Shown here: positions 5,988 to 35,969 of the stretch, in pieces
Layout of the letters: every line of letters starts with the position of its first letter
How positions within the stretch are numbered: the stretch's first letter is position 1
Origin: an uncultured Actinomycetes bacterium
GTDB taxonomy: Bacteria; Actinomycetota; UBA4738; HRBIN12
DNA length: 64,000 nucleotides
Assembly: GCA_963728665.1 (NCBI GenBank)
Contig: CAVSLG010000007.1
Coordinates: forward strand, 12,715-76,714
Reading direction: 5' to 3'
Notes under the pieces: model-generated
The model's input: only the letters and a program-made list of their open reading frames with translations
The model's database searches: none
Told to the model about the DNA's origin: nothing
Program-made: the position numbers and the translations under genes

Positions 5988-7094
5988 ATGCACATCCCAG
6001 CCGCGACGAAGACCGCAGGAGCTCTGACGATCACGCTCGCCATCGCTCTGATCGCCGTCGTCTCGCTCCCCGCATCAGCCGGGACCGGCGTGCGCGCGGT
6101 GAAGGTGGCGGCCGGGCTGAACGGGCCTGCTGCCTTCACGTTCACGCCCAACGGCACGATCGTCTACCTCGAGCGCGCCACGGGCGAGGTTCGCTTCCGC
6201 AACCCGAAGACCGACTTCGACCGCCTGTTCTTCGACATCCAGGGCGTGAACGGCGAGGGCGAGCGCGGCGCGCTCGGGGTCGCGCTGCACCCCCGTTGGC
6301 CCGACAAGCCGTTCGTCTACGTCTACGTGACCCGCTCGGTGAAGGGGAAGCTCCGCAACCAGATCGTGCGCATCCGCGACCGAGGGGGCGAGGGACGCGG
6401 CCTCACGACGATCCTGACGACGCCCGCGAGCTCCAGCCCGTATCACAACGGGGGCCGCATCATGTTCGGCCCTGACAGCAAGCTCTACGCGATCGTCGGC
6501 GACGGCCATACCTCGTCGAACGCGCAGGACCTCACGGCGAACCTCCGCGGCAAGATCCTGCGCATGAACCCCGACGGCTCGGTTCCCGGCACGAATCCGA
6601 TGATCGACGGCAAGCGCGGCCGGATCTTCGCCTTCGGCATCCGCAACTCCTTCGGCTTCACGTTCGACCCCGAGAACGGCAACCTCTGGGAGACCGAGAA
6701 CGGCCCGGAATGCAACGACGAGATCAACTACGTGCAGCCCGGCGACAACTACGCGTGGGGACCGAACCAGAGCTGCCCCGACACGAACCGGGACGGGCCC
6801 GCCCCGCAGCGCCAGCCCGAGGTCACCTTCTCGAACACGATCGGCATCACCGGCACCGCGTTCTGCGACGGGTGCGGCCTCGCCGGACGCCAGGGCGACC
6901 TGCTGTTCAGCGCGTGCTGCGACGGGGGCGTGGTGCGGCGGGTCTCGCTCGACCCGGCGCGAGACGACGTCGTCGGCAACCCGATCACGATGCTCGACGC
7001 TCCGGGTGGGTCGGTGTTCTCGATGGAGGTCGCACCCAACGGCAGCATCTACTTCAGCGACAACAACTCGATCTACCGGCTCCGCAACGCGTAG
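5988..7094 (+). CDS. PQQ-dependent sugar dehydrogenase, paralog 2, with signal peptide
   Basis: ORF 5694..7094. Start placed at ATG 5988 (MHIPAATKTAGALTITLAIALIAVVSLPASA), preceded by GGAGGAGG 11 nt upstream. Alternative ATG 5934 overlaps the paralog 1 stop as ATGA. Same motif set as paralog 1 (GERGALGVALHPRWP, HNGGRIMFGPDSKLY, LWETENGPECNDEIN). Confidence 0.85.
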   Translation: MHIPAATKTAGALTITLAIALIAVVSLPASAGTGVRAVKVAAGLNGPAAFTFTPNGTIVYLERATGEVRFRNPKTDFDRLFFDIQGVNGEGERGALGVALHPRWPDKPFVYVYVTRSVKGKLRNQIVRIRDRGGEGRGLTTILTTPASSSPYHNGGRIMFGPDSKLYAIVGDGHTSSNAQDLTANLRGKILRMNPDGSVPGTNPMIDGKRGRIFAFGIRNSFGFTFDPENGNLWETENGPECNDEINYVQPGDNYAWGPNQSCPDTNRDGPAPQRQPEVTFSNTIGITGTAFCDGCGLAGRQGDLLFSACCDGGVVRRVSLDPARDDVVGNPITMLDAPGGSVFSMEVAPNGSIYFSDNNSIYRLRNA

Positions 7095-7597
7095 CTGCAC
7101 CACGACGGCCGGCCCCTGGCCGCCGCGCGCGAGCCCTCGGCGGCCAACGCGCGACCGAGCCGCATGCCGAAGCTCGCCCCGAACGCGCCTGGGCGGGCCG
7201 AGTTGTAGGCCCGCTCGTGCACGGCTCCCCCACCGTCGGCAGCTGCATCGTCGAGCACGGCCGCGATCAGCGCGCGGCCGATGCCATGGCGTCGGCACTC
7301 CGGCGCCACGAACGCTCGGATCGTCAACCGAGGTGGGTCTCGCGGTTGCGAGAGGTGCGCGTACCCGGCCCCGATCGTCGCCGAGGCGGTTCCTCCTCGT
7401 CGTGCGATCCCTCGATACGGATCGACGGGATCATCGGACCTCCAGCGCGGGACACCCGGGTTCACGACGCGATCGCGCACGGTACCGATACCCAGAACGG
7501 CGACATAGGGGTACCCTCGAGGCAGGCCCGCCGTGTGACCGCCCGAGGCAACCACCCCGAGGTGAGCGATGGACATCGGACAGCCCAAGCGCATCAT
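7073..7597 (-). CDS. GNAT family N-acetyltransferase (weak call)
   Basis: ORF 7073..7597. The acetyl-CoA motif A-like segment is IRAFVAPECRRHGIGRALIAAVLDDA. N-terminal half and start are uncertain; alternative ATG 7576. Confidence 0.45.
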   Translation of the reverse strand: MMRLGCPMSIAHLGVVASGGHTAGLPRGYPYVAVLGIGTVRDRVVNPGVPRWRSDDPVDPYRGIARRGGTASATIGAGYAHLSQPRDPPRLTIRAFVAPECRRHGIGRALIAAVLDDAAADGGGAVHERAYNSARPGAFGASFGMRLGRALAAEGSRAAARGRPSWCSYALRSR

Positions 7598-11306: not shown

Positions 11307-11379
11307 TGGAGACGACCGGGATCGAACCGGCGACCTCCGGCTTGCAAAGCCGGCGCTCTACCAACTGAGCTACGTCCCC
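11307..11379 (-). tRNA. tRNA-Ala (anticodon UGC)
   Basis: Reverse complement reads GGGGACGTAGCTCAGTTGGTAGAGCGCCGGCTTTGCAAGCCGGAGGTCGCCGGTTCGATCCCGGTCGTCTCCA. It has the G3:U70 identity pair and the T-loop GGTTCGATCC. CCA is not encoded. Confidence 0.95.
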
Positions 11380-11407: not shown

Positions 11408-13456
11408 TCAGCCCTCGACGTGCCGATCGATGAGCGGGAACGTGGCCAGGCGACGCTCACCCTCGCCGTCGTAGGCGACGACCTCCACCCGGAGCGCGGT
11501 CAACGGCGCAACGTCGATCTGGACGCCGCGCATCCAGGCCTCGATCTCGGCCAACGGAGCCCCCTGGGCATCGATCGGGTAGGCGAGCGAGAGATGCGGG
11601 ATCCAATCGTCGACGGCGATGAAGTCGCTGTACCCCGGCACCAGCTCCGCGTCGACGGCCGCCGCTCGAAGCGTGGTCAACGCCTCCACGAACGACGCTG
11701 TTCGTTCCAGGCGGACGACGGGGATGCCGTCCTCCCCGAGGATCTGGAGCGCCGCGGCGCGCAGCTCGATCGCAGGTCGGGAGGCTGCCCATGCGCCCAC
11801 GACCTCGACGATCCGTTCCTCGTCGGATCTCGTGAGGGGTGTCCCCTCCGACCCGCTGGCCTTCAGCGTCGCGTGGGCGCTCGGGGCGACGCACGGCACA
11901 CCGAGGCGATCGAGCACCTCGCCTTGCCACCGCACGAACGCCTCGGCGAGGTCGCCCACAGGTCGCACGACCACGTACGCGGTGCCTGCGACCTGGCGCA
12001 GCTTCCGCTCGTCGACCACGATCGGGTCGTCGGAAGGCTTGAGGCGGTCCTCGACATCGAGCCATTGCACGCGACCATCGTGGTCCAATCCGACCTCGAC
12101 GCGGGCACCGCCTCCGGCAGTGGTGAACGAGCCACGCAGCGGCGTCTCGGCGTCGAGAGACTCGACCTGGAGCGGGCCCGACCGTGCGACGAGGAGCTCG
12201 GCCTCTCGTGCACGGCGATCGTACGGCTCGTCCGGTCCGACGTTGTCGGCGAAGAGCGCATCGGCATCGGCGTCACGCCACGACGACAGCAGCGCCGCGG
12301 CCCGTGCGGCAGCATCGGACAGGGCCGGCGATGGGCCGACCGGATACGCCGATCCGAGCTCATCGCGGTCGGCGAGCACCTCCAGCGCCTCGATGCATGC
12401 GCCGTGCATGTTCCCGTAGGTGACGTTCGAGAGTCCGATCACCCCGACCCCGCGATCGGGCAACCAGCGCATGTGCGAGCCGTAGCCCGGCAGCCCGCCG
12501 CTGTGGCCGACCGACACGCCGAGCCGCTCGTCGATACGGATGCCCAGCCCGATGCCGTAGCCGCTCGCGCTCACCCGTGACGGTCCGCCTGGGGCAGGAC
12601 GGTGTCGGTTCACCGCGTCGACACGCCGGAGCTGTTGCATCTCTCGGCGCGCCCACCGAGACAGCGGGCCGCCATCTGCGTCGTCGCGCGGGGGCCAGGC
12701 GTCGGTGAAGAACCCGACCCAGCGAGCGAGGTCGCGCACGGTCGTCCAGATGCCCCCCATCGGAGCGATCGTGCCGTCGCCGACCGGCTCGCCCTCGTGC
12801 AGCCACGCGCCGTCCTGCACGCGGTACGGCTCGGCGACAACGCCGGCCTCGGGTCGGACCCAGGTCGTCGAGACCATACCGAGTGGCTCGAGCAGCGCCT
12901 CGGTCACCAGTTCCTGCACGCGCCCGCCCGCGATCCGTTCGATCACCAGGCCGACCAAGCCCCAGCCGAGGTTCGAGTACTCGAACCGGGTACCGGGCGC
13001 CCATGCGGACTCGATGCCGGACTCGATCAGCGCATCCATCGCCTCGGGCGCCAGGTCGAGGTGGCGATCGGCCCACGCGTCATCGGTGGGCAGGCCGGCT
13101 TCCATCGAGACCAGGTGGCGCACGGTGAGCGGCGGACCGTCGGTCGTTGGCCCTCGCCAGCCCTCGAGCTCGGGCACGTGCATCGCGACTGGATCGTCGA
13201 GCCGCAGGCGGCCGTCGGCCACCAGCGTCATCAGAGCCGCACCCGTGAAGCTCTTGGTCATCGAGGCGATGCGGAACACACTGTCGGCGTCGGGGGTCCC
13301 GGGCCCATCGAGTCGCAGCGCGCCGAGACCGCCGGAAACCATGAGCTCCCCGTCGCGCACGAGGCCCCAGGCGACGCCCGGGATGCGCTCACGACGAGCC
13401 CATCGCGCGAACACCGCGGCGAGCGTTTCCTCGGTCGATGGCGTCGGGTCCGTCAC
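11408..13456 (-). CDS. Serine hydrolase (beta-lactamase/PBP4-like fold) fused to a C-terminal 2H-phosphoesterase-like domain
   Basis: ORF 11408..13456 (GTG start). SxxK motif in IASMTKSF. The C-terminal 200 aa carry two H-x-[ST]-x motifs (SAHATLKA and IPHLSLAY) about 95 residues apart. Confidence 0.8.
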   Translation of the reverse strand: MTDPTPSTEETLAAVFARWARRERIPGVAWGLVRDGELMVSGGLGALRLDGPGTPDADSVFRIASMTKSFTGAALMTLVADGRLRLDDPVAMHVPELEGWRGPTTDGPPLTVRHLVSMEAGLPTDDAWADRHLDLAPEAMDALIESGIESAWAPGTRFEYSNLGWGLVGLVIERIAGGRVQELVTEALLEPLGMVSTTWVRPEAGVVAEPYRVQDGAWLHEGEPVGDGTIAPMGGIWTTVRDLARWVGFFTDAWPPRDDADGGPLSRWARREMQQLRRVDAVNRHRPAPGGPSRVSASGYGIGLGIRIDERLGVSVGHSGGLPGYGSHMRWLPDRGVGVIGLSNVTYGNMHGACIEALEVLADRDELGSAYPVGPSPALSDAAARAAALLSSWRDADADALFADNVGPDEPYDRRAREAELLVARSGPLQVESLDAETPLRGSFTTAGGGARVEVGLDHDGRVQWLDVEDRLKPSDDPIVVDERKLRQVAGTAYVVVRPVGDLAEAFVRWQGEVLDRLGVPCVAPSAHATLKASGSEGTPLTRSDEERIVEVVGAWAASRPAIELRAAALQILGEDGIPVVRLERTASFVEALTTLRAAAVDAELVPGYSDFIAVDDWIPHLSLAYPIDAQGAPLAEIEAWMRGVQIDVAPLTALRVEVVAYDGEGERRLATFPLIDRHVEG

Positions 13457-13482: not shown

Positions 13483-14145
13483 ATGACGGACCGCTGCCAC
13501 GATGGCGGCGTGGAATTCGACGGGCACATCATGGGGGCGTCGTTCGCCTCGGGCGATCGCCTCGTCGTGGGTCGGTGGTTCCGCTCCCCGTTCGGGCCCT
13601 TCGCCGACGTGATGTGGTGCCGGCCCGACGGTCGCCGGGTACTACTCGCACCCGACGAGCACGTGCGCGACTTCGTGGGCGGGCACTATGCGTTCGACGA
13701 GCTACGGCTCGAGCCGGTGCGGGTCGAGCGGGTCGACGGTGCGATCGAGGCCGCAGCCGGACCGATCCGCCTGGTGCTGCGACCACGCGCTCGCGGCACG
13801 GCCTCGCGCCTGCTGGCGATGCGTCCTCGTCGCATCCGCACGGCGAAGGCATGGATCGTCGCCGAAGACCGCCTGCTCCGACCGGTCGTGCGTCCGATGT
13901 TCGCCGCGGCCGACGTGCGCACGACCGGCGTGACGCTCGCAGGCGTGCGCGAGTGGTACGCGATCCACGACTATCGCGACGCCGATGCGAGCGCCTCGGT
14001 CGACGGCGAGGATCTCGGCATCACCGCCCCCTGTCCCCCCGCGGGTTTCGGGTTCAGCGAGTTCCCGTCGAGACCCGCACTCGTCCGCGTGACGTCGTTG
14101 TTCGATCTGGACGGAGCATCAGCCCGCCCCGTGCTACGAACCTGA
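13483..14145 (+). CDS. Hypothetical protein
   Basis: ORF 13438..14145. Start placed at ATG 13483 to avoid overlapping the divergent gene. No recognisable motifs. Confidence 0.5.
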   Translation: MTDRCHDGGVEFDGHIMGASFASGDRLVVGRWFRSPFGPFADVMWCRPDGRRVLLAPDEHVRDFVGGHYAFDELRLEPVRVERVDGAIEAAAGPIRLVLRPRARGTASRLLAMRPRRIRTAKAWIVAEDRLLRPVVRPMFAAADVRTTGVTLAGVREWYAIHDYRDADASASVDGEDLGITAPCPPAGFGFSEFPSRPALVRVTSLFDLDGASARPVLRT

Positions 14146-14781
14146 CTCGCTCGGCGACGGGCTGTTCGTCGGGGTCGGCGACATGCCGGGCCGCCACTGT
14201 TCCACGGCGCCGTCGTCCGGGGCGCGGTCGAGGCAGGTGCGTCGGCACACCTCGCCGGTGAAGCTCGTCATCGTCCACCAGGCGTACGACGTGCGGAACC
14301 GCCCGAACTCGAGCGACTTGATCGGCACCGCGACCGACACCCCGTCGGATGACTTCCGCCGGACCGTCACGTTGCGCAGGAACTGGTCGCGCCGGTCCCG
14401 GCGATCGCGCCAGAGCGATCCCTGCAGGTCCGAGCCCGTGCTGCGCACGACCACGAAGTACTCGGGGTCCTCATCGCCCTCGGTGTCGAGGAAGACGTAG
14501 CCGTTGCCTCGATCCCAGATCGACGCGGGCGTCCAGTCGGCGAACGTGAGCACCGTGACCTCGGTGCCGCCGTCGTGAGCGAGCCGCACTCGCCGCACGT
14601 CGAGAAGACCCTTCGTGTCGTTCGGATCGTTGAAGTCGCTGTGGAACGACGGGGCAGCGATCGCGACGACCGCCACCAACGCGAGCAGGCCGGCCACGAC
14701 GAACGGTACGGCAGGGCGCAACGACGACGCGGCCCACCGGTTCCGGGTCGAGGTCACGTGGGCGCGCCCCGGCCCAGCCAT
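14134..14781 (-). CDS. Membrane-anchored hypothetical protein, last gene of the mau-like operon
   Basis: Distal part of ORF 14134..15279. ATG 14781 (alternative GTG 14757 overlapping the upstream stop as GTGA). One N-terminal TM helix (AVPFVVAGLLALVAVVAIAAP), a beta-rich domain, then an S/P-rich tail. Confidence 0.55.
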   Translation of the reverse strand: MAGPGRAHVTSTRNRWAASSLRPAVPFVVAGLLALVAVVAIAAPSFHSDFNDPNDTKGLLDVRRVRLAHDGGTEVTVLTFADWTPASIWDRGNGYVFLDTEGDEDPEYFVVVRSTGSDLQGSLWRDRRDRRDQFLRNVTVRRKSSDGVSVAVPIKSLEFGRFRTSYAWWTMTSFTGEVCRRTCLDRAPDDGAVEQWRPGMSPTPTNSPSPSESGS

Positions 14782-15878
14782 CTGATCGCCGTCCACGCGG
14801 TGAAGCCTGCCACGCCGAGCCCTGCGATGGCCAACACCATCGGCAGGAACTCTCCGGCATCGGGCCATCCGGGCCACGACAGCACGGGCTCGGGGGCCGG
14901 CCGCAGCACGACCGCGATCGCGAGGGCAGCCAATGCGGCGTTGCGCAGCAGCAGGGCGGGAGGCGCCACCGCCTCGCGACCGCCGAAACACCCGCACGGC
15001 ACCTGAGGACCGAACCGGCGCCACGCGCGCACGGCTTCCCCGGTGAACACGACCAACAGCACGAGCGCCCAGATGCCGGCGGCCCGGGTCCAACCTGACG
15101 CCGCCAGCAGCGGCACCACCGCCTCCGCCGTCGGCACGGCGAACGTTGCGACACTCTCGACCCCAGGCGGCAGCCCATGGGCACTCAGCGTGCCCCGCCA
15201 TCCGCCGATGTCGACCGCCTTCGACGTCGCGGCCCACGCGAACGCGAGCGCGAGCACCGCGGTCGCGAACGCGGCCCATCCGTCGGTGGCTCGGATCGCA
15301 GTCGCAACTGAGAGCGCGGCCACGGCCACGAGCGCAGCACCGTTCGCGACATGCCGCCGGCGTTCCGGCGAGCCGGCCAACCGGTCGACGAGCCCCTGGG
15401 ACTCTTCCTGGGTGCGGATGCCGGCTGCCCTCGCCGCCGAGAGGCCTCGCAGCAGCCCGAACGGCGCGACGATGAGCGCACCCACCAACGGATCACCCGA
15501 GGCGAGCGCAGCAACGGCCACCACCACGAGGGTGCCGTGGGACAGGTAGGTGAAGAACCCGATGCCGAGTCCGGCGCCGTACAGGGTGGCGGCGATCGGC
15601 CACGAGAAGTACTCACGCCACCAGTCGGGCACCTGCCGTCTGAGCTGCGGCACGGTGGCCGTCACCCTCGGGAGCTCGCCCGCCGCGTAGATGAGCGCCG
15701 CCAACGCGAGCGCCACCGCCCCGGCGCGTCCCCACGGTGCCTCGAGCAGCGCGCCGACCGCGGCGAGCGCGGCGCCGAAGAGCGCGGCGGTCACCGTCGC
15801 GCCGGCGACGTGCAGCGCGAGAGCGACGGCCCACCGGGTGCGCCCCCCGTACACGACGGGGGTGATGGTCTCCACCAT
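14754..15878 (-). CDS. Polytopic membrane protein with C-terminal MauE/DoxX-like domain
   Basis: ORF 14754..15878. The C-terminal half has MauE-like helices and the PCGCFGG motif. The N-terminal 190 aa form about 4-5 additional TM helices of unknown family. Confidence 0.75.
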   Translation of the reverse strand: MVETITPVVYGGRTRWAVALALHVAGATVTAALFGAALAAVGALLEAPWGRAGAVALALAALIYAAGELPRVTATVPQLRRQVPDWWREYFSWPIAATLYGAGLGIGFFTYLSHGTLVVVAVAALASGDPLVGALIVAPFGLLRGLSAARAAGIRTQEESQGLVDRLAGSPERRRHVANGAALVAVAALSVATAIRATDGWAAFATAVLALAFAWAATSKAVDIGGWRGTLSAHGLPPGVESVATFAVPTAEAVVPLLAASGWTRAAGIWALVLLVVFTGEAVRAWRRFGPQVPCGCFGGREAVAPPALLLRNAALAALAIAVVLRPAPEPVLSWPGWPDAGEFLPMVLAIAGLGVAGFTAWTAIRWLGRGAPT

Positions 15879-15887
15879 CGACAGCCC

Positions 15888-15992
15888 TCAGGGGCCGTAC
15901 AGCGCCGACCACCCGGCGATCGCCGACGCGGCGACGAGCACCAGCAGCAACGACGCCTCGAGCGCGTCGCCGCCGAACGGATCGATCAGCAC
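15888..15992 (-). CDS. 34-codon hydrophobic micro-ORF between the MauA-like and MauE-like genes
   Basis: Manual translation gives (GTG)LIDPFGGDALEASLLLVLVAASAIAGWSALYGP. 33 of 34 third positions are G/C. The GTG overlaps the upstream stop (GTGCTGA). The stop lies 9 nt before the MauE-like ATG. Confidence 0.3.
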   Translation of the reverse strand: MLIDPFGGDALEASLLLVLVAASAIAGWSALYGP

Positions 15993-16522
15993 GTCTTGTT
16001 GAGCTCCCGATACGTGATGCAGAAGACCTTCAGCGGGCGCGGGCAGTACCCACGCACCGCGTAGTCGCCGTTGATGCGGATATCCGACCTGGAGCAGCAG
16101 TCCTGGATGTGCCGCAGCCGGCCCGAGCAGCACCGCGTCCACCCGCCGCCGTAGCGGGGCGATCCGGTGAACGGGTACGCCTCGGGCACGACCTGTTCGC
16201 AGGTCTTTCGCCTGGTCTGGTTCCGCGGGTCGAGGTACTTCTCTCCCTCATCGTCGACCGGGTGCCCGTACTGCGGATGCATCGGGTAGCCGTAGCGGTC
16301 GGTACGCGACAGGGGCGCGTAGGGGTGGGGGCACGAACCCGTCGTGTAGGTGTGTCCGCAGATGTGATAGGCCTGTGCGCGATCGGGCGCGATCGCGGTG
16401 GCGACCAAGCCACCGCCCGCGAGCGCCACCACCCCGCGGCCGACGCGGCCGAGGAAGCTCCGGCGGGTGGTCTTCGTGGCGAGCGATCGTTCCGCCCGCT
16501 CGATCGAGGTCAGCTTGCCCAC
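15986..16522 (-). CDS. Tat-exported cysteine-rich protein, methylamine dehydrogenase light chain (MauA)-like
   Basis: Distal part of ORF 15986..17011. GTG 16522 is preceded by GGAGGA 9 nt upstream. Twin-arginine signal TKTTRRSFLGRVGRGVVALAGGGLVATAIAPDRAQA. The mature part of about 135 aa has 10 Cys, including GGGWTRCC and IQDCCS. Confidence 0.6.
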   Translation of the reverse strand: MGKLTSIERAERSLATKTTRRSFLGRVGRGVVALAGGGLVATAIAPDRAQAYHICGHTYTTGSCPHPYAPLSRTDRYGYPMHPQYGHPVDDEGEKYLDPRNQTRRKTCEQVVPEAYPFTGSPRYGGGWTRCCSGRLRHIQDCCSRSDIRINGDYAVRGYCPRPLKVFCITYRELNKTC

Positions 16523-17019
16523 TGCTCGCGATCCTCCGTGATCCGTCGGTTTGCGGTGTCCACGAGTCCTTCGACCTGCTCCAGGTTGTTCACGGTGCCC
16601 TTGGCTCGCACGACGCCCTGTTCGTCGAGGACGACGACGAACGGGGTTCCGGGTACCTCGAGGGTCCGCTCCGCATCGGGATCGTGCACGACGATCGGAT
16701 CCAGCCTCCCCGCGGCGGCCGCGGCCGGTACGCCCGGTGACACCTCGCGGCAGACGACGCAGGTCTCCGACGCGAACAGCACGAGGCGGGGTCGGCCGGC
16801 GCCACCGAGAACAACCTGCTCGCCGTCGGCGGCGTGCGCGGACACCGAGGGCAGCGGCTCGCCGAGCGCGGGGCCCTCGTCGTCGATCTCCAGAGCACCG
16901 CGCGGTCCCAGTCGCAGATGCAGGGTGCCGACCTGCCGGGCGAGCGCGACCACCACGATGCAGAGCACGACGACGAGCAGCCACAGCACGACGAAGGCGA
17001 GCGCCCACCACCCAGTCAT
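16510..17019 (-). CDS. Membrane-anchored thioredoxin-fold protein, MauD-like
   Basis: ORF 16510..17019. N-terminal TM helix then ALARQVGTLHLRLGPRGAL, a CVVC redox motif and VVLDEQGVVRAKGTVNN. This resembles the methylamine dehydrogenase accessory protein MauD as I recall it. Confidence 0.7.
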   Translation of the reverse strand: MTGWWALAFVVLWLLVVVLCIVVVALARQVGTLHLRLGPRGALEIDDEGPALGEPLPSVSAHAADGEQVVLGGAGRPRLVLFASETCVVCREVSPGVPAAAAAGRLDPIVVHDPDAERTLEVPGTPFVVVLDEQGVVRAKGTVNNLEQVEGLVDTANRRITEDREQWAS

Positions 17020-17055
17020 CCGGCCATCACCGTCCGTCCGGCGCTCCGCGCACCC

Positions 17056-17616
17056 TCAACGCATCGTCCACGTCGGCTGCTTCGTCTCGTCCAGGAACTG
17101 TACGAACGGTGAGCCGTCGCCGGCCAACCCGACGATCGCCCGGAGCTCGCCGGCGCGATCGAGCAGGCGGAGCACGGGCGAGCCTTCCGCAGCCAGCCCG
17201 AGCCGCACCCGCACCTTGCCCGCGTGGTCGTAGAGGCCGAGCGTCGGCGAGCCCTGCTCGGCGAGCGAGTAGACCTGCGACAGCTCGCCCTCGCTCACCT
17301 GCATTCCCATCGTGGGCGACGCCTCGGGTGCGAGTCCGAACTTCGCTCGGATGCGCCCGTTCTTGTCACCGAACGCCAGGCTCGCGCTCCCGTCGCTCGA
17401 CAGGCCGACCGTGGCACGGACCTTGCCGTTCTCGTCGCCGACCGCGAGCCCGGCGGCACCGTCGGCGGAGAGACCGAAACGCATGCGCACCTGCCCGTCA
17501 GGAGCGAGCAGTGAGAAGAACGGATCCTCGTCGTTCGAGAGCCCGATGCGGACCCTTACCCGACCGTCGTCGTCGACGACCTCGAACTCTCCCGCTTGCA
17601 CGACTCGCTTCTTCAT
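17056..17616 (-). CDS. Tandem-repeat protein (about 7.5 copies of a 23-residue unit), first gene of the mau-like operon
   Basis: ORF 17056..17727 with ATG at 17616 (MKKRVVQAGEFEVV). The repeat unit resembles LxxxDxxG+VRxxxGLxxDGSP. No signal peptide is evident. Confidence 0.65.
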   Translation of the reverse strand: MKKRVVQAGEFEVVDDDGRVRVRIGLSNDEDPFFSLLAPDGQVRMRFGLSADGAAGLAVGDENGKVRATVGLSSDGSASLAFGDKNGRIRAKFGLAPEASPTMGMQVSEGELSQVYSLAEQGSPTLGLYDHAGKVRVRLGLAAEGSPVLRLLDRAGELRAIVGLAGDGSPFVQFLDETKQPTWTMR

Positions 17617-20140: not shown

Positions 20141-20215
20141 TGGGCCTGGATGGACTTGAACCATCGACCTCTTCCTTATCAGGGAAGCGCTCTAACCGGG
20201 CTGAGCTACAGGCCC
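20141..20215 (-). tRNA. tRNA-Ile (anticodon GAU)
   Basis: Reverse complement reads GGGCCTGTAGCTCAGCCCGGTTAGAGCGCTTCCCTGATAAGGAAGAGGTCGATGGTTCAAGTCCATCCAGGCCCA. The 7-bp acceptor stem pairs perfectly. CCA is not encoded. Confidence 0.95.

Positions 20216-22211: not shown

Positions 22212-22216
<5 letters not shown>
22188..22216. terminator. Bidirectional hairpin terminator between the convergent M23 and gyrA genes
   Basis: Perfect 12-bp stem agtagggcgggg / ccccgccctact with a 5-nt loop ttcgt. It overlaps the gyrA stop codon. Confidence 0.6.
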
Positions 22217-24659
<2,443 letters not shown>

Positions 24660-24711
24660 CCGCTACGCCTTCGGCTACTTGAGCGACGTGCCACGGTGTG
24701 TGATCAGCTCC

Positions 24712-28279
<3,568 letters not shown>

Positions 28280-28307
28280 CGCGAGACGGAGGCCCGCGTG
28301 CCGGCGG

Positions 28308-29411
28308 TCAGGAGACGACGGCCGGCAAGCGCACGGGCATCACGAGGTAGGTGAACTCGTCGCTCTCGCCGCGCACGACACCCGGCTTCAGCCCGTCGCG
28401 CACGTCGATGCGAACGCTCTCCCCGTTCGCGGCGCGCAACCCGTCGGCCAGGTACTGCGGATTGAAGGCGACCGTGAGGTCGTCGCCTTCGTACCGAGCC
28501 TCGACCGTCTCGACCGCCTGCCCCAGATCGGGGCTCGACGACGAGAGCTTGACCCCCAGTGCGTTGAACTCCAGCCGGACCGGCGTCGTGTCGCGGGCCA
28601 TGAGCCCGACGCGGCTCACCGCATCGAGCAGCTGCTGTCGGCTGATCGTCAGCCGGCTCTCGTGCTGGTCGGGCAGCAGCTGGCGGTAGTTCGGGAACTC
28701 GCCCTCGATCAGTCGCGACGTGAGCGTGAGCTCGCCTATGCGGAAGGCCACCTGCGACTCGTCGACGACGATCTCGAGCGTTCCCTTCTCGTCGGCTGAG
28801 GCGGCTCGGCCCGCTTCGCTCAGGGCCCGCTCGGGCACGATGGCCTTGCCTTCACCATCGGCGGTCGCCACGAGCTCGCGGACCGCGAGCCGGTACGAGT
28901 CGGTGGCGACCATCACGACGCCTTCGCGGCTGACCTCGATCAGCACGCCCGTGAGCACCGGACGGGCTTCGTCACGCGAGGCCCCCCGGGCGACCTGGTG
29001 CACCGCCTCGGCGAAAGCGCCGGCCTCGGCCGTGATCTTCGTGCCGCTGGGCTCCTGCAGGCCGGGGAAATCCTCGGCCGGCAGTAAGCGTAGCGTGCCT
29101 TCATATGCGGCACAACGGATATGGGCTTGCGACTGATCCGTCTCGACATCGACCGGAGCATCGGACAACGACTTCACCGTGTCGCCGAGCAGGCGAGCCG
29201 GCACGAGGGCGATGCCAGGCTCGCTCACCTGCACATCGGTCGCCAACCGCGCCGACACCTCGAGGTCGGTCGTCGTCAGCATGAGGCGGCCCTCATCGGT
29301 CGCCTCGATCAGTACGCCCGTGAGCGCCGGGATGCCCGGCCTCGACGACACCCCGCGCTGAACGGTCTGCAGTGCCTCGGACAACGCGTCTCGGTCACAC
29401 CGGAACTTCAC
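28308..29411 (-). CDS. dnaN: DNA polymerase III beta subunit (sliding clamp)
   Basis: ORF 28308..29429. GTG 29411 chosen because VKFRCDRDALSEAL aligns with the canonical MKF... N-terminus and follows GGGGGTGGA. Alternative ATG 29429. Confidence 0.93.
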   Translation of the reverse strand: MKFRCDRDALSEALQTVQRGVSSRPGIPALTGVLIEATDEGRLMLTTTDLEVSARLATDVQVSEPGIALVPARLLGDTVKSLSDAPVDVETDQSQAHIRCAAYEGTLRLLPAEDFPGLQEPSGTKITAEAGAFAEAVHQVARGASRDEARPVLTGVLIEVSREGVVMVATDSYRLAVRELVATADGEGKAIVPERALSEAGRAASADEKGTLEIVVDESQVAFRIGELTLTSRLIEGEFPNYRQLLPDQHESRLTISRQQLLDAVSRVGLMARDTTPVRLEFNALGVKLSSSSPDLGQAVETVEARYEGDDLTVAFNPQYLADGLRAANGESVRIDVRDGLKPGVVRGESDEFTYLVMPVRLPAVVS

Positions 29412-29651
29412 TCGGTCCACCCCCTGCATCTACTGTCTTGAAGAAGGAAAGAACATCGGTAGTAGGCACTGTGGAAACCTGCATGGACGTACCGTTCCCG
29501 CAGCGTAGACGGGCCGTCCGACATGTGGGAAACGCGTGGGGAAAACGTGTCGCTCCCCGGAAGACGCCGGAACGAGGACGCGGTTCCCACCGATCGCGAC
29601 GACTTGTGCACAGGTCGGTCCACAGACCGCCGAGGTCGCCCGCGGACGCGA
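29412..29651. other. Candidate oriC (dnaA-dnaN intergenic region with DnaA-box-like 9-mers and an AT-richer patch)
   Basis: Matches to TTGTCCACA with 1-3 mismatches: GTTTCCACA (29470..29478, minus), TTTCCCACA (29524..29532, minus), TTGTGCACA (29604..29612) and CGGTCCACA (29616..29624). The locally AT-richer stretch tcttgaagaaggaaagaacatcggtagtagg lies at 29436..29466. Confidence 0.5.
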
Positions 29652-31094
29652 TCATGCGGCACGCACCCGCCCTCGGATGATGCGCGTGAGGTCCTGCACC
29701 TGACGGAAGGTCGCGTCGCGTGCCCGCATCTCGTCCTCGACCTTGCGGATGCCGTGCAGCACGGTCGTGTGGTCGCGGCCGCCGAAGATCTCGCCGATCT
29801 TCAGCAGGGACAGGCCCGTGCACTCCCGCGTGAGGTACATCGCGATGTGTCGCGCCTGGGTAAGCGGGCGCGAGCGCGACTTGGACATCAGGTCGGCCGC
29901 CGAGAGCGAGAAGTACTTCGCCGTCTCGTCGAGGATCAACGGCGGCGGGATCTCGTTCTGGGTCTGCGGGATCAGGTCCTCGAGCGCACGTTCGGCGAGG
30001 GTGTTGTCGATCGGCTGGCCCGTGAGCTCGCTCCAGGCGACCACTCGCACGAGCGCCCCTTCGAGCTCACGCACGGATTGGTCGAACTTCGACGCCACGA
30101 ACTCGATCACGTCGGGCGGCACGGTGATGTGCTCGCGCTCGGCCTTCAACTGCAAGATCGCGATGCGGGTCTCGAGGTCGGGTGGCTGCACGTCGACGCA
30201 GAGCCCCCACCGGAACCGGTTCACCAGCCGCTCCTCGAGCCCGGAGAGCTCATGCGGGGGCCGGTCGGATGCGATCACGATCTGCTTCCCGGCCCCGTGC
30301 AGGTGGTTGAACGTGTGGAAGAACTCGGTCTGCGTCTCCTCGCGTTTGGCCAGGAACTGGATGTCGTCGACGAGCAGCACGTCGACCTCCCGGTACCGCT
30401 GGCGGAACGCATCTCCCCCTTGCCGCTCGCGAACCGCCTTGATGAACTCGGTCACGAACTGCTCGGAGGTGACGTACTTCACGCGGAGCGCAGGCGCGAG
30501 CCGGTACATGTGGTGACCCACCGCTATCAGGAGGTGGGTCTTGCCGAGCCCCACTCCCCCGTAGATGAACAGGGGGTTGTAGGCGGTCGAGGGCGGGGCC
30601 TCGGCCACGGCCATCGCGGCGGCGTGAGCGAACCGGTTGCTGGGCCCGGGCACGAACGCATCGAACGTGTAGCTCGGGAACGGCAGGCCCGGGGCGCCGA
30701 GTGACTCTCGCGCGGCCGACGGCGCCTCGGGGGCGCCGATCGAGGCGTACGAAGCGGGCGCTCCATCGACCGCCCGGTCGATCGGCGCGGTCTCGAACGA
30801 GCCGCCCGTGCCCGCCTGTTCACGCAGGGCCTCGTCGATCGAGAGCTCGATCTTCAGGGGCCGGCCGGCCGCTTCCTGCGCAGCTCGTTCGATCAGCGGA
30901 AGATGATTGTGTTGCAAACGTTCACGAACCAGAGGACTCGGCACGGCGAGCGTGATCGAATGCTCGGCCAGGCTCACCGGCCGGACGTCGGCGAACCACA
31001 TCACGACCGTCGTCTCGGGCAGCTCTTCGCGCGCCCGATCGAGCACGTGGGCCCACGCATCGCGAGCCTCGTGTTCAGGGGACGCTAACGCCAT
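29652..31094 (-). CDS. dnaA: Chromosomal replication initiator protein DnaA
   Basis: Distal part of ORF 29652..31343. ATG 31094 ([14 protein letters not shown]). AAA+ Walker [12 protein letters not shown]. Segments LLVDDIQFL and the C-terminal DNA-binding helix DHTTVLHG. Confidence 0.95.
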
Positions 31095-31097
31095 ATG

Positions 31098-31130
31098 GAA
31101 TCCACAACACCTTTCCACACCGGTGGAAAA
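31098..31130. promoter_or_regulatory. Cluster of three DnaA-box-like sites immediately upstream of dnaA
   Basis: GAATCCACA (31098..31106), CTTTCCACA (31111..31119) and TTTTCCACC on the minus strand (31122..31130), all within 33 bp. Confidence 0.5.
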
Positions 31131-31269
31131 CACGGGAAGGTTCGTCGTGGCGCCGCGCCGTGCGAGGGCTCGGGTCGCCGGGGGGAAGGCGGGGCGCACG
31201 TTAGCACACCGTTCTCCCCGCCTCCCGGCCGCCCACCGGGTCTTGACACTCTTTCTCGTGTCAAGGCCT

Positions 31270-31299
31270 TTGTCCTGCGGCGATGCGGGCTCGTATACT
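31270..31299 (+). promoter_or_regulatory. Candidate rpmH promoter
   Basis: TTGTCC (31270..31275), an 18-nt spacer, then TATACT (31294..31299), about 75 nt upstream of the rpmH ATG. Confidence 0.35.
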
Positions 31300-31373
31300 G
31301 CGACCCGGCCGGCCGCGTGCCGGCCTTTCACACGACCGATCACGCGATCCGATCACGAAGGACCACGTTCTCG

Positions 31374-31530: not shown

Positions 31531-31845
31531 GTGCGCTCCCGCGCGGTCCGACGGGTGCTCGATCGGGCCCGACCCCGTCGCGGAAGGCGGGTGGTACTGT
31601 TCCTTGCGCCCGGCTCCGGCGACTGGGCGGTCGTGGCCACGCGCCGCGTGGGCGGGGCCGTCGAGCGGAACCGGGCCAAACGGATCCTGCGGGAGGCTTG
31701 GAGACAGGTATCGCCGCAGGTCACAGGAGATTTCGACGCCGTCCTGGTGGCCCGCGAGGCGATCCGGGGCGCAACGACGCAGGATCTGGTGAGCGAGATG
31801 AGCGAGTTACTGCCTCGAGAGGTTGTGCGCGATGACGGTGCATGA
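31531..31845 (+). CDS. rnpA: Ribonuclease P protein component
   Basis: Distal part of ORF 30907..31845. GTG 31531. Segments [25 protein letters not shown]...[18 protein letters not shown]. Conserved position after rpmH. Confidence 0.85.
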
Positions 31846-32146
31846 GCTCGCCTGGCGCGCCGGCGCCCCGACGCGGACCCTGCTGGCGGGGGCGATCCAC
31901 GTGTACCGAGCGGTCTTCTCCGGATGGCTCGGTGGGCAATGTCGGTACTACCCGACCTGCAGCCACTATGCGGAGGACGCGATCCGTCACCACGGAGCCT
32001 TGCGAGGTTCCGCCCTCGCCACCTGGCGCATCGCGCGATGCAACCCGTACGGCCGCGGTGGCTTCGACCCGGTGCCGCAGACCCGTCACGGACAGCACAG
32101 TGTGTATGACGATGTCGTACACTCTGGCGAGGAGGCTCGCGCCTAG
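31832..32146 (+). CDS. yidD: Membrane protein insertion efficiency factor YidD
   Basis: ORF 31823..32146. Segments [46 protein letters not shown]. Start ATG 31832 or GTG 31823. Confidence 0.85.
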
Positions 32147-33277
32147 ATGCTCGCCGAGATCCCCGTCATCTCCCCGATCTTCCAGGGTCTGCTCGACACG
32201 ATCGGCTGGGTCCTCGCTTGGCTGTATGACGTCATCCCCAACTACGGCGTCGCGATCATCATCCTCACGCTGGTGCTGCGCTTCCTGCTCTTCCCGCTCG
32301 GCATGAAGCAGATCAAGTCGATGCAAGCGATGCAGGCGCTGCAACCGAAGATCAAAGAGATCCAGAAGAAGTACAGGGGCAACAAGCAGAAGGCCCAGGA
32401 AGAGACGATGCGCCTGTACAAGGAGGCGGGGGTCAATCCCCTGGGCGGGTGTCTGCCGGTCCTGGCGCAGTTCCCGTTGCTGATCGCGATGTACGCCGTG
32501 ATCAGGGCGCCGGGGTATGAGCCCGTCACGGAGAACGATCAGGTGACGGCATACGCGATCACGAACAACCACCTCCCCACCGACAGCACGCTCTTCGCCA
32601 GTGTCGTGACTCACGAGAACACGGGGTTCCTCGGCTTGAACCTTCAGTGCTCCGCATCCCAGGCCGGAAGCGTCGAGAACAGCACGATCAAGGACACACA
32701 GGGCAACGTAGTGAAGCCGGGGCTGCCGCTCGAGGGCGACGACGGACAGGCCCTCGACTCCTTTGAATCCAAGCCGGTGCTCCCGTGTGGAACCGATGGG
32801 CTCACGTCGAAGATCGGCTACGTGCTGCTGCTCGGCCTGATGATCGCGACGTCGTTCTATCAGACCATTCAGACCCAGCGGGCGAGCCCTCAAGGGGCCG
32901 CGTCGAACCAGCAGCAGATGATCCTGCGGATCATGCCGTTGTTCTTCGGGTTCATCGGGTTCAGCTTCCCGGCCGGCCTGGTGTTGTATTGGACGGTCTC
33001 CAACCTGTTCATGATCGGCCAGCAGACCCTGCTGCTCCGGGCAGGCCACATCGGACCCGATGCCCTCGAGCGGCGCATGGCCGAACAGAAGGCGAAGATG
33101 ACGGCGCAAGCCGACAAACCCCAGAAGAAGGGATTCATGGCGGGCATGATGGAACGCGCCGACGAGGAGCGGAAGCGGCGCGAGGCCGATGCCAAGAAGA
33201 ACCCTCCCCCGAAGAAGGGCAGCTCGCCCCAGCGGAAGCCAAAGAAGCCTGGTTCGGGAGGCAAGGGTGGCTCCTGA
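32147..33277 (+). CDS. yidC: Membrane protein insertase YidC
   Basis: ORF 32147..33277. Segments YGVAIIILTLVLRFLLFPL, MQALQPKIKEIQKKY and GCLPVLAQFPLLIAMY. The ATG directly abuts the yidD stop. Confidence 0.95.
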   Translation: MLAEIPVISPIFQGLLDTIGWVLAWLYDVIPNYGVAIIILTLVLRFLLFPLGMKQIKSMQAMQALQPKIKEIQKKYRGNKQKAQEETMRLYKEAGVNPLGGCLPVLAQFPLLIAMYAVIRAPGYEPVTENDQVTAYAITNNHLPTDSTLFASVVTHENTGFLGLNLQCSASQAGSVENSTIKDTQGNVVKPGLPLEGDDGQALDSFESKPVLPCGTDGLTSKIGYVLLLGLMIATSFYQTIQTQRASPQGAASNQQQMILRIMPLFFGFIGFSFPAGLVLYWTVSNLFMIGQQTLLLRAGHIGPDALERRMAEQKAKMTAQADKPQKKGFMAGMMERADEERKRREADAKKNPPPKKGSSPQRKPKKPGSGGKGGS

Positions 33278-33764
33278 GCGCGACGACCCGCCGAACCTCG
33301 ACGAGCTCGAGGAACAGGCCGATGCGGCCGCAGACTTCCTCGATGAGCTTCTGTCGCGCATGGACATCGATGCGATCGCGGAGCCGAACCCGCACGAGGG
33401 GCACATGTACGTCGATATCGTCGACGGTCCAGAAGAGGACATGTCCCTGCTGATCGGACGTCACGGCCAGACGCTGGAAGCCATCCAGGAGCTCACCCGC
33501 ATGGTGGTCGGGCGTCGGCTCGATCAGCGGGTGCGGGTGATCGTCGACGTCGAGGACTACCGCAAGCGGCGGGAGGCTAGGCTCGAGGAGCACGCCCGCG
33601 AGGTCGCCGAGCGGGTGCGCGACACCGGTCGAGAGGAAGAGCTCGAGCCGATGAACTCCTACGAGCGCAAGCTGGTGCACGACGCCGTCGCCGACGTCGA
33701 CGGTGTCGAGACGGAGTCCCGCGGCCTCGACCCCGAGCGGTTCGTCGTCATCGTTCCCTCCTGA
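33267..33764 (+). CDS. jag: Jag/KhpB RNA-binding protein (KH and R3H domains)
   Basis: Distal part of ORF 33189..33764. GTG 33267 is preceded by GGGAGG 5 nt upstream. Segments LLIGRHGQTLEAIQELT (KH) and SYERKLVHDAV (R3H). Confidence 0.85.
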   Translation: MAPERDDPPNLDELEEQADAAADFLDELLSRMDIDAIAEPNPHEGHMYVDIVDGPEEDMSLLIGRHGQTLEAIQELTRMVVGRRLDQRVRVIVDVEDYRKRREARLEEHAREVAERVRDTGREEELEPMNSYERKLVHDAVADVDGVETESRGLDPERFVVIVPS

Positions 33765-33818
33765 CCTCCGCCGTCGGTTCCCTTCCTGGGAGAAGGCTCG
33801 ATCGGGGCACGAACCGTC

Positions 33819-34457
33819 GTGTCGTACGCTGCCGAGATGCGTGAAGAGGCGATGTTTCACGTGAAACATGAGGGTTGGGCACCGGCCGCAGCCCTCGAGG
33901 TGGAACTCGATGAGACCGCCATCGAGCGTCTCGAGCGTCTCGAGCGGTTGCTGCGCGAGAAAGCCGCCCCCATGGGCATGGTCGCCTCGTCGGACATGAC
34001 GCGGCTCCGCGAACGCCACATCCTCGACAGCCTGAGGGCCACTCCCCTGCTCCCGGACGCAGGAACCGTCTGTGACATGGGGTCGGGAGCCGGATTGCCG
34101 GGCATCGTCCTCGCCATCGCAAGGCCCGACCTCCGATTCGTGCTCGTCGAGGTACGGCGGAACCGTGCGAGCTTCCTCGAGGAGGCCACCGCGGACCTCG
34201 GGAATGTGGCCGTATACGGGCGGCGTCTGGAGACCTTCCGCGAGAAGGTCGAAGCATGTACCGCAAGGGCGTTCGCTCCTGCGTCGAGGTCGTGGGAAGC
34301 CGCCGAACATCTCCTCGGAGGGTCCGGATACCTGATCTACTGGGCGGGCGGGACCTTCGATCTCGCCAGCGACATGCCGAGCGGAGTGTCGGGAACGCTT
34401 TTCACGACGTCTGCGCTTGCACGGTCGGGCCCGCTGGTTATCATGACTCGGCAGTGA
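33819..34457 (+). CDS. rsmG: 16S rRNA (guanine527-N7)-methyltransferase RsmG (GidB)
   Basis: ORF 33819..34457. Segments RHILDSL and the SAM motif DMGSGAGLPGIVLAI. Start uncertain (33819, 33837 or 33852). Confidence 0.9.
   Translation: MSYAAEMREEAMFHVKHEGWAPAAALEVELDETAIERLERLERLLREKAAPMGMVASSDMTRLRERHILDSLRATPLLPDAGTVCDMGSGAGLPGIVLAIARPDLRFVLVEVRRNRASFLEEATADLGNVAVYGRRLETFREKVEACTARAFAPASRSWEAAEHLLGGSGYLIYWAGGTFDLASDMPSGVSGTLFTTSALARSGPLVIMTRQ
33853..33868. promoter_or_regulatory. parS centromere-like site
   Basis: Perfect 16-bp palindrome TGTTTCACGTGAAACA, identical to the ParB-binding consensus. It encodes FHVKH in the rsmG 5' end. Confidence 0.85.
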
Positions 34458-35722: not shown

Positions 35723-35969
35723 TGCCGCGTCCGAGCCACCTCGGGTCGCCCCGCCGAGTTCCCCGGCCCCACCCGGGCACCTTCCCGAACGTCGGGTGGT
35801 GGTCATCGACGAAGACGCCGAACCACAGGCGCCCTCGCAGCCGAGCCGTCCCGATCCCGAGGCTGATGCACCGGAGGGCCACGCCGTAGCCGACATCGGC
35901 GCCACCCTCGAGGACGACGAAGGCTCTCACAAGCGACGATGGCGACTGTTCCGCAAGGGAGGCGAGTGA
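35598..35969 (+). CDS. P/E-rich ORF, either the frameshifted continuation of the ParA tail or a separate acidic protein coupled to parB
   Basis: ORF 35598..35969, VPEPTPVPAPAPEPTPEPPPEPVPP...RRWRLFRKGGE. Its TGA shares a base with the parB ATG (TGATG). The composition continues the parA tail from another frame. Confidence 0.4.
   Translation: MPEPTPVPAPAPEPTPEPPPEPVPPTVPPPALEEEDVWEEADAASEPPRVAPPSSPAPPGHLPERRVVVIDEDAEPQAPSQPSRPDPEADAPEGHAVADIGATLEDDEGSHKRRWRLFRKGGE

Follow-up and report, generated by a model that had tools for sequence, protein, structure and literature searches.

We analyzed a gene cluster in a 64-kb stretch of DNA (further referred to as the window) from an uncultured Actinomycetes bacterium, contig CAVSLG010000007.1 of the GenBank assembly GCA_963728665.1. 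The cluster is located on the minus strand between positions 17616 and 14134 of the window, and it probably constitutes a dedicated oxidative-folding operon that includes a new family of selenoproteins. The G+C content of the window is ~70%. The GC content of third codon positions (GC3) supports the reading frames, being 0.82–0.96 in exactly one frame per gene. The first gene (17056..17616) encodes a protein of 186 aa with seven 23-residue repeats. It is separated by a 36-nt gap from the gene of a thioredoxin-fold protein resembling MauD (16510..17019, 169 aa), which has a membrane anchor and a CVVC motif. The latter gene overlaps by 13 nt with the gene of a protein having a putative twin-arginine translocation (Tat) signal and ten cysteines (15986..16522, 178 aa, the mature part being ~127 aa long); the GTG start of this gene at 16522 is preceded at 8 nt by the Shine-Dalgarno sequence GGAGGA. 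Further we refer to this Cys-rich protein as the presumed cargo. Next come a 34-codon open reading frame (ORF) starting with GTG (15888..15992) and a 374-aa ORF with the PCGCFG motif (14754..15878), whose C-terminal half is a MauE domain. The 34-codon ORF overlaps with the cargo gene by 7 nt (GTGCTGA), its GTG overlapping with the Cys-stop end of the latter. The last gene encodes a membrane-anchored extracytoplasmic protein with a CxxxC motif. It starts either at 14757, overlapping with the end of the 374-aa ORF as GTGA (14134..14757, 207 aa), or at the ATG at 14781 (215 aa). Scans of this region for promoters and terminators produced nothing. The sequence-only reading of this DNA had described six co-directional, tightly packed ORFs on the minus strand; their positions, packing and frames hold.

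The same cannot be said of the 34-codon ORF as a gene in its own right. It shares its frame with the 374-aa ORF, only a TGA codon and 9 nt lie between the two, and they almost certainly form one gene. The proposed single gene (14754..15992) has 412 codons encoding the first transmembrane helix, an in-frame UGA, the rest of a polytopic N-terminal domain (further, the N-domain), and the MauE domain (14904..15272). The UGA (15888..15890) would encode selenocysteine (Sec) at position 35, in the context GP-U-GLSMVETITP.

The codon evidence comes from the comparison of two clades. In the clade of the window, TGA occupies this site in all 82 loci that reach it, comprising 76 distinct sequences and including an outgroup with 58% identity. 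The sister clade (further, the Cys clade) is represented by Solirubrobacteraceae-type metagenome-assembled genomes (MAGs) and has a three-gene operon consisting of a MauE-MauD fusion (296 aa), the cargo, and a protein of ~500 aa. The N-terminus of the latter is homologous to the 34-codon ORF together with the N-terminal half of the 374-aa ORF (BLASTP E=2e-12), and its gene is uninterrupted: the codon aligned with the TGA is TGC (68 loci) or TGT (10 loci) in 78 of 78 loci. The UGA thus aligns with Cys25 of the Cys-clade protein (GAWSP-C-GFSMVDTIGS there versus AGWSALYGP-TGA-GLS-MVETITP in the window), and the flanking residues AG..P-[U/C]-G-x-S-x-V-x-T-I are invariant across both clades. The 9-nt stretch separating the TGA from the ATG evolves as Gly-Leu-Ser codons, its variation being nearly confined to third positions: positions 6 and 9 vary freely, and position 7 changes solely so as to encode Leu, Phe or Met. 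In the Cys clade, the Met annotated as the start is internal and conserved, and in both clades the start of the gene overlaps with the Cys codon and stop codon of the cargo gene as xTGCTGA. As a control, we considered stop codons of other genes in the same loci. The cargo gene ends with TGA in 68 loci and with TAG in 15; for the last gene the numbers are 30 TGA, 24 TAG and 6 TAA. The window was also searched for further in-frame TGA codons flanked by coding signal both upstream and downstream, and no second selenoprotein candidate emerged.

Two hairpins located 11–47 nt past the UGA (15844..15879) form a candidate bacterial Sec insertion sequence (SECIS). The first one, H1, is formed by nucleotides 12–17 and 22–27 (GAUGGU-GGAG-ACCAUC), has a 6-bp stem and starts 11 nt from the U of the UGA. 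It is invariant in 71 aligned sequences, third codon positions included. The second one, H2, is formed by nucleotides 29–36 and 40–47; its loop contains an invariant G37 and a nearly invariant U38. Compensatory changes occur at three pairs of H2 (C-G to G-C in 18 sequences and to U-A in two; G-C to A-U in one). Considering both helices, 94% of alignment cells are paired, compared with 33–64% for slid partners. Synonymous change is suppressed in this region: for conserved four-fold degenerate codons, the third-position entropy is 0–0.12 bits at Ser+3, Thr+7, Pro+10 and Gly+14 versus 0.6–1.9 bits (mostly above 1) elsewhere in the gene. These features are specific to the TGA clade. All six pairs of H1 are retained in 71 of 76 TGA-clade sequences versus six of 72 sequences from the Cys clade, and all seven pairs of H2, in 53 of 76 versus one of 72. 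The mean folding energy is −20.4 kcal/mol in the TGA clade and −13.1 kcal/mol in the Cys clade. The codon Thr+7 is ACC throughout the TGA clade, whereas in the Cys clade 65 of 71 sequences have ACG.

Several observations weigh against a selenoprotein. The energy of the hairpins is unexceptional for DNA with 70% GC (z=−1.28); the argument for a SECIS is a comparative one, because the energy alone is not significant. H1 shows no covariation, as it never varies, and no Rfam SECIS model matched at the hairpins. One long-read contig of the TGA clade (L089:305-1750, P0138) has TGG (Trp) at the Sec site, being the sole exception seen. We rejected it as a true Trp variant: the cargo gene of this contig contains several frameshifts, and the TGG is probably a sequencing error in a run of G. 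The window and related loci totalling 1.3 Mb contain neither sel genes nor tRNA-Sec, but this search is uninformative, since it covered 64 kb of the genome and 2–20-kb loci of its relatives. Specifically, the Pfam sweep of 50 window ORFs revealed no SelA, SelB or SelD domain; Rfam yielded no tRNA-Sec, nor did ARAGORN on 0.95 Mb of loci; and tblastn with SelA, SelB and SelD of Escherichia coli matched LepA alone. Finally, TGAGG followed 7 nt further by ATG also looks like a stop codon, a Shine-Dalgarno sequence and a restart.

This last observation leads to the alternative of a split gene, with the TGA acting as a true stop. The locus would then produce a single-helix micropeptide of 34 aa and, with translation re-initiating in a coupled manner at the ATG located 9 nt further on, a 374-aa protein; GAGG within TGAGG would be the Shine-Dalgarno sequence and the hairpins would serve translational coupling. 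The spacing in TGAGG-N7-ATG is ideal for this, and public gene callers indeed annotate the locus as split, with a stop and the 374-aa protein restarting from ATG. Besides, stop codons embedded in gene overlaps (those of the MauD-like and MauE-fusion genes) are likewise invariantly TGA. On the other hand, the break coincides exactly with the Cys that is invariant in the sister-clade gene, and this residue would have to be deleted; the presumed spacer changes like Gly-Leu/Phe/Met-Ser codons; the ATG corresponds to a conserved internal Met of the Cys clade; TAG or TAA are found in none of the 82 loci, while 9–50% of free stops nearby are other than TGA; and the hairpins are missing where the codon encodes Cys. 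We consider the split gene unlikely.

In silico, bacterial selenoprotein genes are recognized by a UGA aligned with Cys, by conservation of the residues around it, and by a stem-loop downstream whose apical loop contains G (PMC1088965). As the locus displays a UGA/Cys pair, conserved flanks and clade-specific downstream hairpins, the interval 15992..14754 is very probably a single gene encoding, judging from these comparisons, a 412-aa selenoprotein with the UGA read through as Sec35. Sec decoding is plausible for the phylum, as it is known in some Actinobacteria (PMC5029168). Neither MauE nor a comparable membrane family was found by keyword in the text and table of a 2026 review of the prokaryotic selenoproteome (PMC13188914). 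The recoded protein and its Cys homologue matched none of the NCBIfam release 20 models, curated selenoprotein models included, and no Pfam family outside MauE.

The N-domain has no Pfam match at E≤10 in either clade, and the same applies to all 32 members of alignment A4. It has no NCBIfam match and, by profile A5, no match in PDB. In the ~500-aa Cys-clade protein it is followed by a TolB-like beta-propeller (predicted local distance difference test, pLDDT, ~90; Foldseek E=4e-8). Foldseek matches of the AlphaFold2 model of this protein reflect the propeller only, the N-domain being of low confidence (pLDDT 45–70). Such N-domain-propeller proteins are encoded, in particular, at L004:10588-12081 and L005:10570-12084 and have ~2100 homologues, several of which carry an additional C-terminal beta-lactamase domain (PF13354; 745–795 aa).

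The sequence-only reading assigned the C-terminal half of the 374-aa ORF to the MauE type, and the profile search agrees: PF07291 matches residues 203–325 with E=1.2e-21 (77.8 bits versus the gathering score of 27). The CXC active site is followed by Phe-Gly, as PCGCFG in the window, and CGC is retained in 63 of 63 loci. The same reading likened the CVVC protein to MauD, which stands insofar as a relative is meant. TIGR02661 (MauD) matches it with E=3.1e-23, but the score of 82.2 bits is far below the equivalog cut-off of 188.6, and hence, by this profile, it is MauD-like rather than a MauD equivalog. Its hydrophobic anchor spans residues 4–27, the CVVC motif occupies positions 87–90, CxxC is found in 82 of 82 loci, and Redoxin and Thioredoxin Pfam models produce weak matches.

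MauE acts as a DsbB-like oxidase: it replaces DsbB by means of its CXC motif and complements dsbB mutants, as demonstrated for the MauE proteins of Caldithrix and Desulfatibacillum (bioRxiv 10.64898/2026.03.05.709764). According to the same study, MauA is present in only ~10% of species having MauE, and MauE-Trx fusions constitute 8.2% of MauE entries. MauE and MauD without methylamine dehydrogenase (MADH) are therefore not new in themselves but a documented common case, given also the earlier observation made with decRiPPter (PMC7794033). The new parts are the specific cargo, the additional Sec/Cys membrane domain, and the conserved operon.

The alternative domain fusions suggest that MauE, MauD, the membrane N-domain and the cargo act in one pathway. 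They comprise MauE-MauD (in the sister-clade loci L004 and L005), MauE-MauD-cargo in one ORF (L088), N-domain-MauE (the window), and N-domain-propeller (the sister clade). The ORF of L088, a metagenomic contig, is located at 6001-7362 (P0137) and encodes 453 aa, including the twin-arginine motif of the cargo. Either the three proteins are truly fused here, with a Tat-like signal inside the chain, or neighboring genes by chance lie in one frame with no stop between them.

The cargo has the canonical twin-arginine motif TRRSFLG followed by the cleavage site AQA|Y. The score of TIGR01409 is 14.9 bits, just below the cut-off of 16.7; R20 is invariant and R21 is nearly so (Arg or Lys) in both clades. 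Homologues of the cargo number 646 for the window form and 1237 for the divergent form, and fall into 192 clusters at 50% identity. They are mostly labelled as hypothetical proteins or unnamed, and none has a functional name or a Pfam domain. Relatives of the cargo are found in at least 441 species-representative genomes, always beside MauD/MauE homologues; the best 80 cargo loci come nearly exclusively from MAGs of uncultured Actinomycetota. The cargo is ~70% identical across hundreds of species. Ten Cys, W128 (in G-W-x-R-C-C), H57, and a set of Arg, Asp and Asn residues are invariant in both clades; the C-terminal residue is always Cys, and the ten Cys, W128 and H57 are retained in 83 of 83 loci. 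There is also a conserved C-G-H...C-P motif. In the AlphaFold2 model, pLDDT of the mature domain exceeds 90. No PDB match was found by phmmer or by a 32-sequence profile search, and Foldseek comparison of the model with PDB also produced none (best E=0.27, TM-score below 0.2). Judging from the model, the cargo has a novel fold without a structural relative and belongs to an unannotated family.

In the sequence-only reading this protein resembled the MADH light chain, MauA. None of the profile and structure methods reproduced this resemblance. PF02975 did not match the cargo at E≤1, and TIGR02659 matched with E=0.018 residues 10–39 only, that is, the signal peptide. A profile search with the cargo family yielded zero PDB matches, although light chains of MADH and aromatic amine dehydrogenase (AADH) are in the PDB library. 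Alignment of the cargo family with 2BBK_L by hhalign had the probability of 1.5% (the MauA query being identical to 2BBK_L), and Foldseek of the confident cargo model listed no MADH or AADH chain. We thus rejected the cargo as a relative of the MauA light chain bearing tryptophan tryptophylquinone (TTQ). TTQ is formed from two Trp residues, beta-Trp57 and beta-Trp108. W128 is the sole Trp of the mature cargo in the window and the sole invariant Trp of the family, and a cofactor of the TTQ (Trp-Trp) type is excluded for this reason. In agreement with the same reading, domains of MauB, MauG and cupredoxins are absent from the window, as judged by the Pfam sweep of its 50 ORFs; the annotated loci L001, L002, L004 and L005 contain no MauB, MauG or amicyanin. 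Of its proposal that the genes mature and export a cross-linked or disulfide-rich secreted protein, the disulfide-rich part is still the best functional reading, while the TTQ-type cross-linked light chain is abandoned.

A weaker form of the quinoprotein idea is that the cargo is analogous, though very remotely, to the small subunits with TTQ or cysteine tryptophylquinone (CTQ), that Trp128 becomes a CTQ-like cofactor, and that the operon matures a new dehydrogenase for amines or other substrates, with the sister-clade propeller or another partner as the large subunit. The invariant Trp does neighbor an invariant Cys pair, and the cargo has many invariant charged residues; the combination of a Tat signal, many Cys and MauE/MauD parallels the biogenesis of MauA; and the small Cys-rich protein has a beta-propeller encoded beside it in the sister clade, which recalls the heavy and light chains of MADH. 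At the same time, the cargo has no similarity to MADH or AADH light chains in sequence, profile or fold, and neither the window nor the four annotated loci contain a MauG-like di-haem peroxidase, a LodB-like flavoprotein or a radical-SAM maturase. The propeller, moreover, is a generic TolB-like one and is missing from the clade of the window. We regard this version as quite improbable.

The sequence-only reading also proposed to compare gene neighborhoods, and we did this by tblastn of window proteins against 85 related loci. The gene order is syntenic in 77–85 of them, far above chance. The MauD-like gene adjoins the cargo gene in all 85 loci, and the N-domain gene is next in 83, the remaining two loci ending early. 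Wherever the contig extends far enough, the MauE domain (65 loci) and the last protein (64 loci) are encoded as well. The repeat protein gene is located upstream of the MauD-like gene in 77 loci (identity 57–97%), and further upstream, in 71 loci, there is the gene of an MR_MLE enzyme. The operon is conserved across hundreds of uncultured soil Actinomycetota.

The repeat protein is the best-conserved gene product of the block, its identity often being higher than that of its neighbors; it looks cytoplasmic and has no signal peptide. It has no Pfam or NCBIfam match. The repeats are of the beta-hairpin type, and by phmmer the protein weakly resembles (E=0.0018) engineered OspA proteins with a single-layer beta-sheet, whose hairpin unit also has 23 residues. 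Synteny suggests that the repeat protein belongs to the redox system.

The last protein has no Pfam, NCBIfam or PDB match; CxxxC and W168 near the C-terminus are each found in 62 of 62 loci. In the sister clade its gene is replaced by the TolB-like propeller fused to the N-domain. We considered homology between the last protein and this propeller, and their comparison showed none. An extracytoplasmic scaffold is the likely role of the last protein or, in the sister clade, of the propeller; given its conserved residues, the last protein may, instead of being passive, serve as a redox partner or as another client.

Taken together, these data make it fairly probable that the locus is a dedicated extracytoplasmic oxidative-folding (thiol-redox) operon for one presumably Tat-exported cargo with ten Cys, a protein with Sec35 in the N-domain fused to MauE being a part of it. 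The MauE gene would start 114 nt before the annotated ATG and, with UGA read as Sec, produce the 412-aa polytopic protein. Its MauE domain would generate disulfides at the CGC loop, presumably passing electrons to the membrane quinone as in DsbB and VKOR. The membrane-anchored MauD-like protein, oxidized by MauE at its CxxC, would carry disulfides to the cargo and, as family knowledge and the fusions suggest, introduce or shuffle its five potential disulfides. Sec35, the one invariant redox residue of the N-domain (Cys in the sister clade), would be a thiol/selenol relay or a resolving or isomerizing site coupled to MauE; such a relay could resemble the second Cys pair of DsbB. The product of the last gene with its CxxxC would be the extracytoplasmic partner. 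The comparisons establish the domain identities, the conservation of the operon, the domain fusions, the UGA/Cys pairing and the hairpins specific to one clade; that Sec is inserted, which way electrons flow, what Sec35 does and what the cargo serves for are inferred.

Three considerations count against the oxidative scheme. Sec35 may lie at the cytoplasmic or at the outer face of the membrane, the N-domain being modeled with pLDDT of 45–70. Proteins of the MauD/TlpA type can be reductants, and the redox direction in the scheme is presumptive. Lastly, Tat export of a cargo that still needs extracytoplasmic disulfides is unexplained, the same puzzle existing for MauA.

A rival reading is a reductive or isomerase pathway, in which the N-domain would act like CcdA/DsbD and pass reducing equivalents via Sec/Cys to the MauD-like protein. 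The latter, instead of oxidizing the cargo, would keep chosen Cys of it reduced, e.g. for metal or cofactor binding. MauD has a fold of the TlpA/ResA type, which includes many reductants (cf. the weak Redoxin match), and one record of the Joint Genome Institute (JGI) names a Cys-clade homologue "CcdA". By inspection, the positive-inside pattern suggests that Sec/Cys may lie near the cytoplasmic face, and the C-G-H...C-P motif of the cargo could bind a metal. However, the N-domain has no Pfam, NCBIfam or PDB similarity to CcdA, DsbD_TM or DsbD_2 (PF02683, PF13386 among them), and it has one conserved Cys/Sec rather than the two Pro-Cys motifs of CcdA; on these grounds the N-domain was not assigned to the CcdA/DsbD relays. 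In addition, the sister clade has MauD directly fused to MauE, an oxidase according to work on other MauE proteins. A reductive pathway is rather unlikely.

About equally doubtful is a new redox system that would go beyond cargo folding. It would combine a membrane selenoprotein, with a single catalytic Sec and fused to MauE, and a secreted protein of novel fold, matured by it or working with it, whose invariant Trp-x-Arg-Cys-Cys center would bear a metal site or a new cofactor, cross-linked or of the quinone type. The two would provide uncultured soil Actinomycetota with a new enzymatic activity.

Another possibility is a cluster of the bacteriocin type, or one for peptides that are made on the ribosome and then modified post-translationally (RiPPs), with MauE and MauD tailoring a Cys-rich precursor peptide. 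Indeed, decRiPPter found mauE/mauD homologues beside precursors with at least eight Cys in Streptomyces (PMC7794033). But the cargo is a folded domain of 127 residues (pLDDT above 90), ~70% identical over hundreds of species. It is encoded in a conserved housekeeping neighborhood ~15 kb from dnaA, and genes for a protease, a transporter or immunity are missing. Such a function is very improbable.

Returning to the oxidative-folding operon, we compared it with the systems already described. Like the mau clusters of Paracoccus denitrificans and Methylobacterium extorquens, it has a MauE-domain protein with PCGCFG and an anchored CxxC relative of MauD beside a small Cys-rich protein with a predicted Tat signal. 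The differences are that sequence, profile and fold all set the cargo apart from MauA, and it has a single Trp instead of two; that no domain of MauB, MauG, amicyanin or MauF was detected in the window ORFs swept; that MauD scores far below its equivalog cut-off; and that MauE is fused to a novel domain with the proposed Sec. The host, moreover, belongs to Actinomycetota, and the operon is close to oriC. With DsbB-DsbA, VKOR-thioredoxin and the generalist MauE the system shares a membrane generator of disulfides and a thioredoxin-fold carrier, MauE-Trx fusions being found as in the sister clade. In contrast to these, the pair is tied in an operon to one cargo and two or three further conserved proteins, and a redox residue (Sec/Cys) is added on a separate membrane domain.

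Selenoproteins already known from thiol-disulfide chemistry (DsbA-like, TlpA-like "UGC", and the rhodanese/DsbD fusion TsoB), as covered by the review cited above (PMC13188914), also have Sec in place of a redox Cys, a UGA/Cys pair, and a hairpin after the UGA. Unlike them, the window protein would carry Sec in a polytopic membrane domain that has no Pfam or NCBIfam model, and this Sec is single, with no CxxU or UxxC partner nearby. The CcdA/DsbD relays are similar in having a polytopic domain with Pro-Cys (Sec) at the end of the first transmembrane helix, encoded beside a thioredoxin-fold protein of the TlpA/ResA type, but there is no detectable homology, and the window domain has one redox residue instead of two. 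The decRiPPter clusters of Streptomyces (PMC7794033), compared by description, similarly contain mauE/mauD homologues outside a mau cluster, beside a small Cys-rich ORF; the product encoded here is a large folded domain of high conservation that carries a predicted Tat signal and has housekeeping genes around it.

The window covers the region of the chromosomal origin. The genes dnaA, dnaN, recF, gyrB and gyrA are located at 22–31 kb (gyrA, gyrB, recF, dnaN, dnaA: 22212-31352, minus strand), followed by yidC, the gene of a jag-type KH/R3H protein, and parB (31802-36862, plus strand). The operon lies ~15 kb from dnaA, and its placement relative to gyrB/gyrA is equivalent in locus L001. The gene just downstream of the block (11408-13456, minus strand) combines a domain of the beta-lactamase family with a weak region of the 2',5'-RNA-ligase superfamily (E=8.6e-4). 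This pairing is unusual and syntenic solely in the closest relatives (seven loci). The region is flanked by lone genes of tRNA-Ala(TGC) (11307-11379, minus strand) and tRNA-Ile(GAT) (20141-20215, minus strand), ~9 kb apart and outside any rRNA operon, whereas such a pair is usually located inside one.

If the UGA indeed encodes Sec, the prokaryotic selenoproteome would gain a membrane-embedded family fused to MauE, and the gene calls of no fewer than 82 related loci, of which 80 represent distinct species-level genomes, would be wrong here, giving a truncated protein and an uncalled micro-ORF. MauE, recently recognized as a DsbB-like oxidase, would gain a concrete dedicated client, and three natural domain fusions map the pathway. 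The cargo makes an attractive subject for structural and biochemical work. Finally, comparing the paired Sec and Cys clades would amount to a natural experiment on the reasons for using selenium here.

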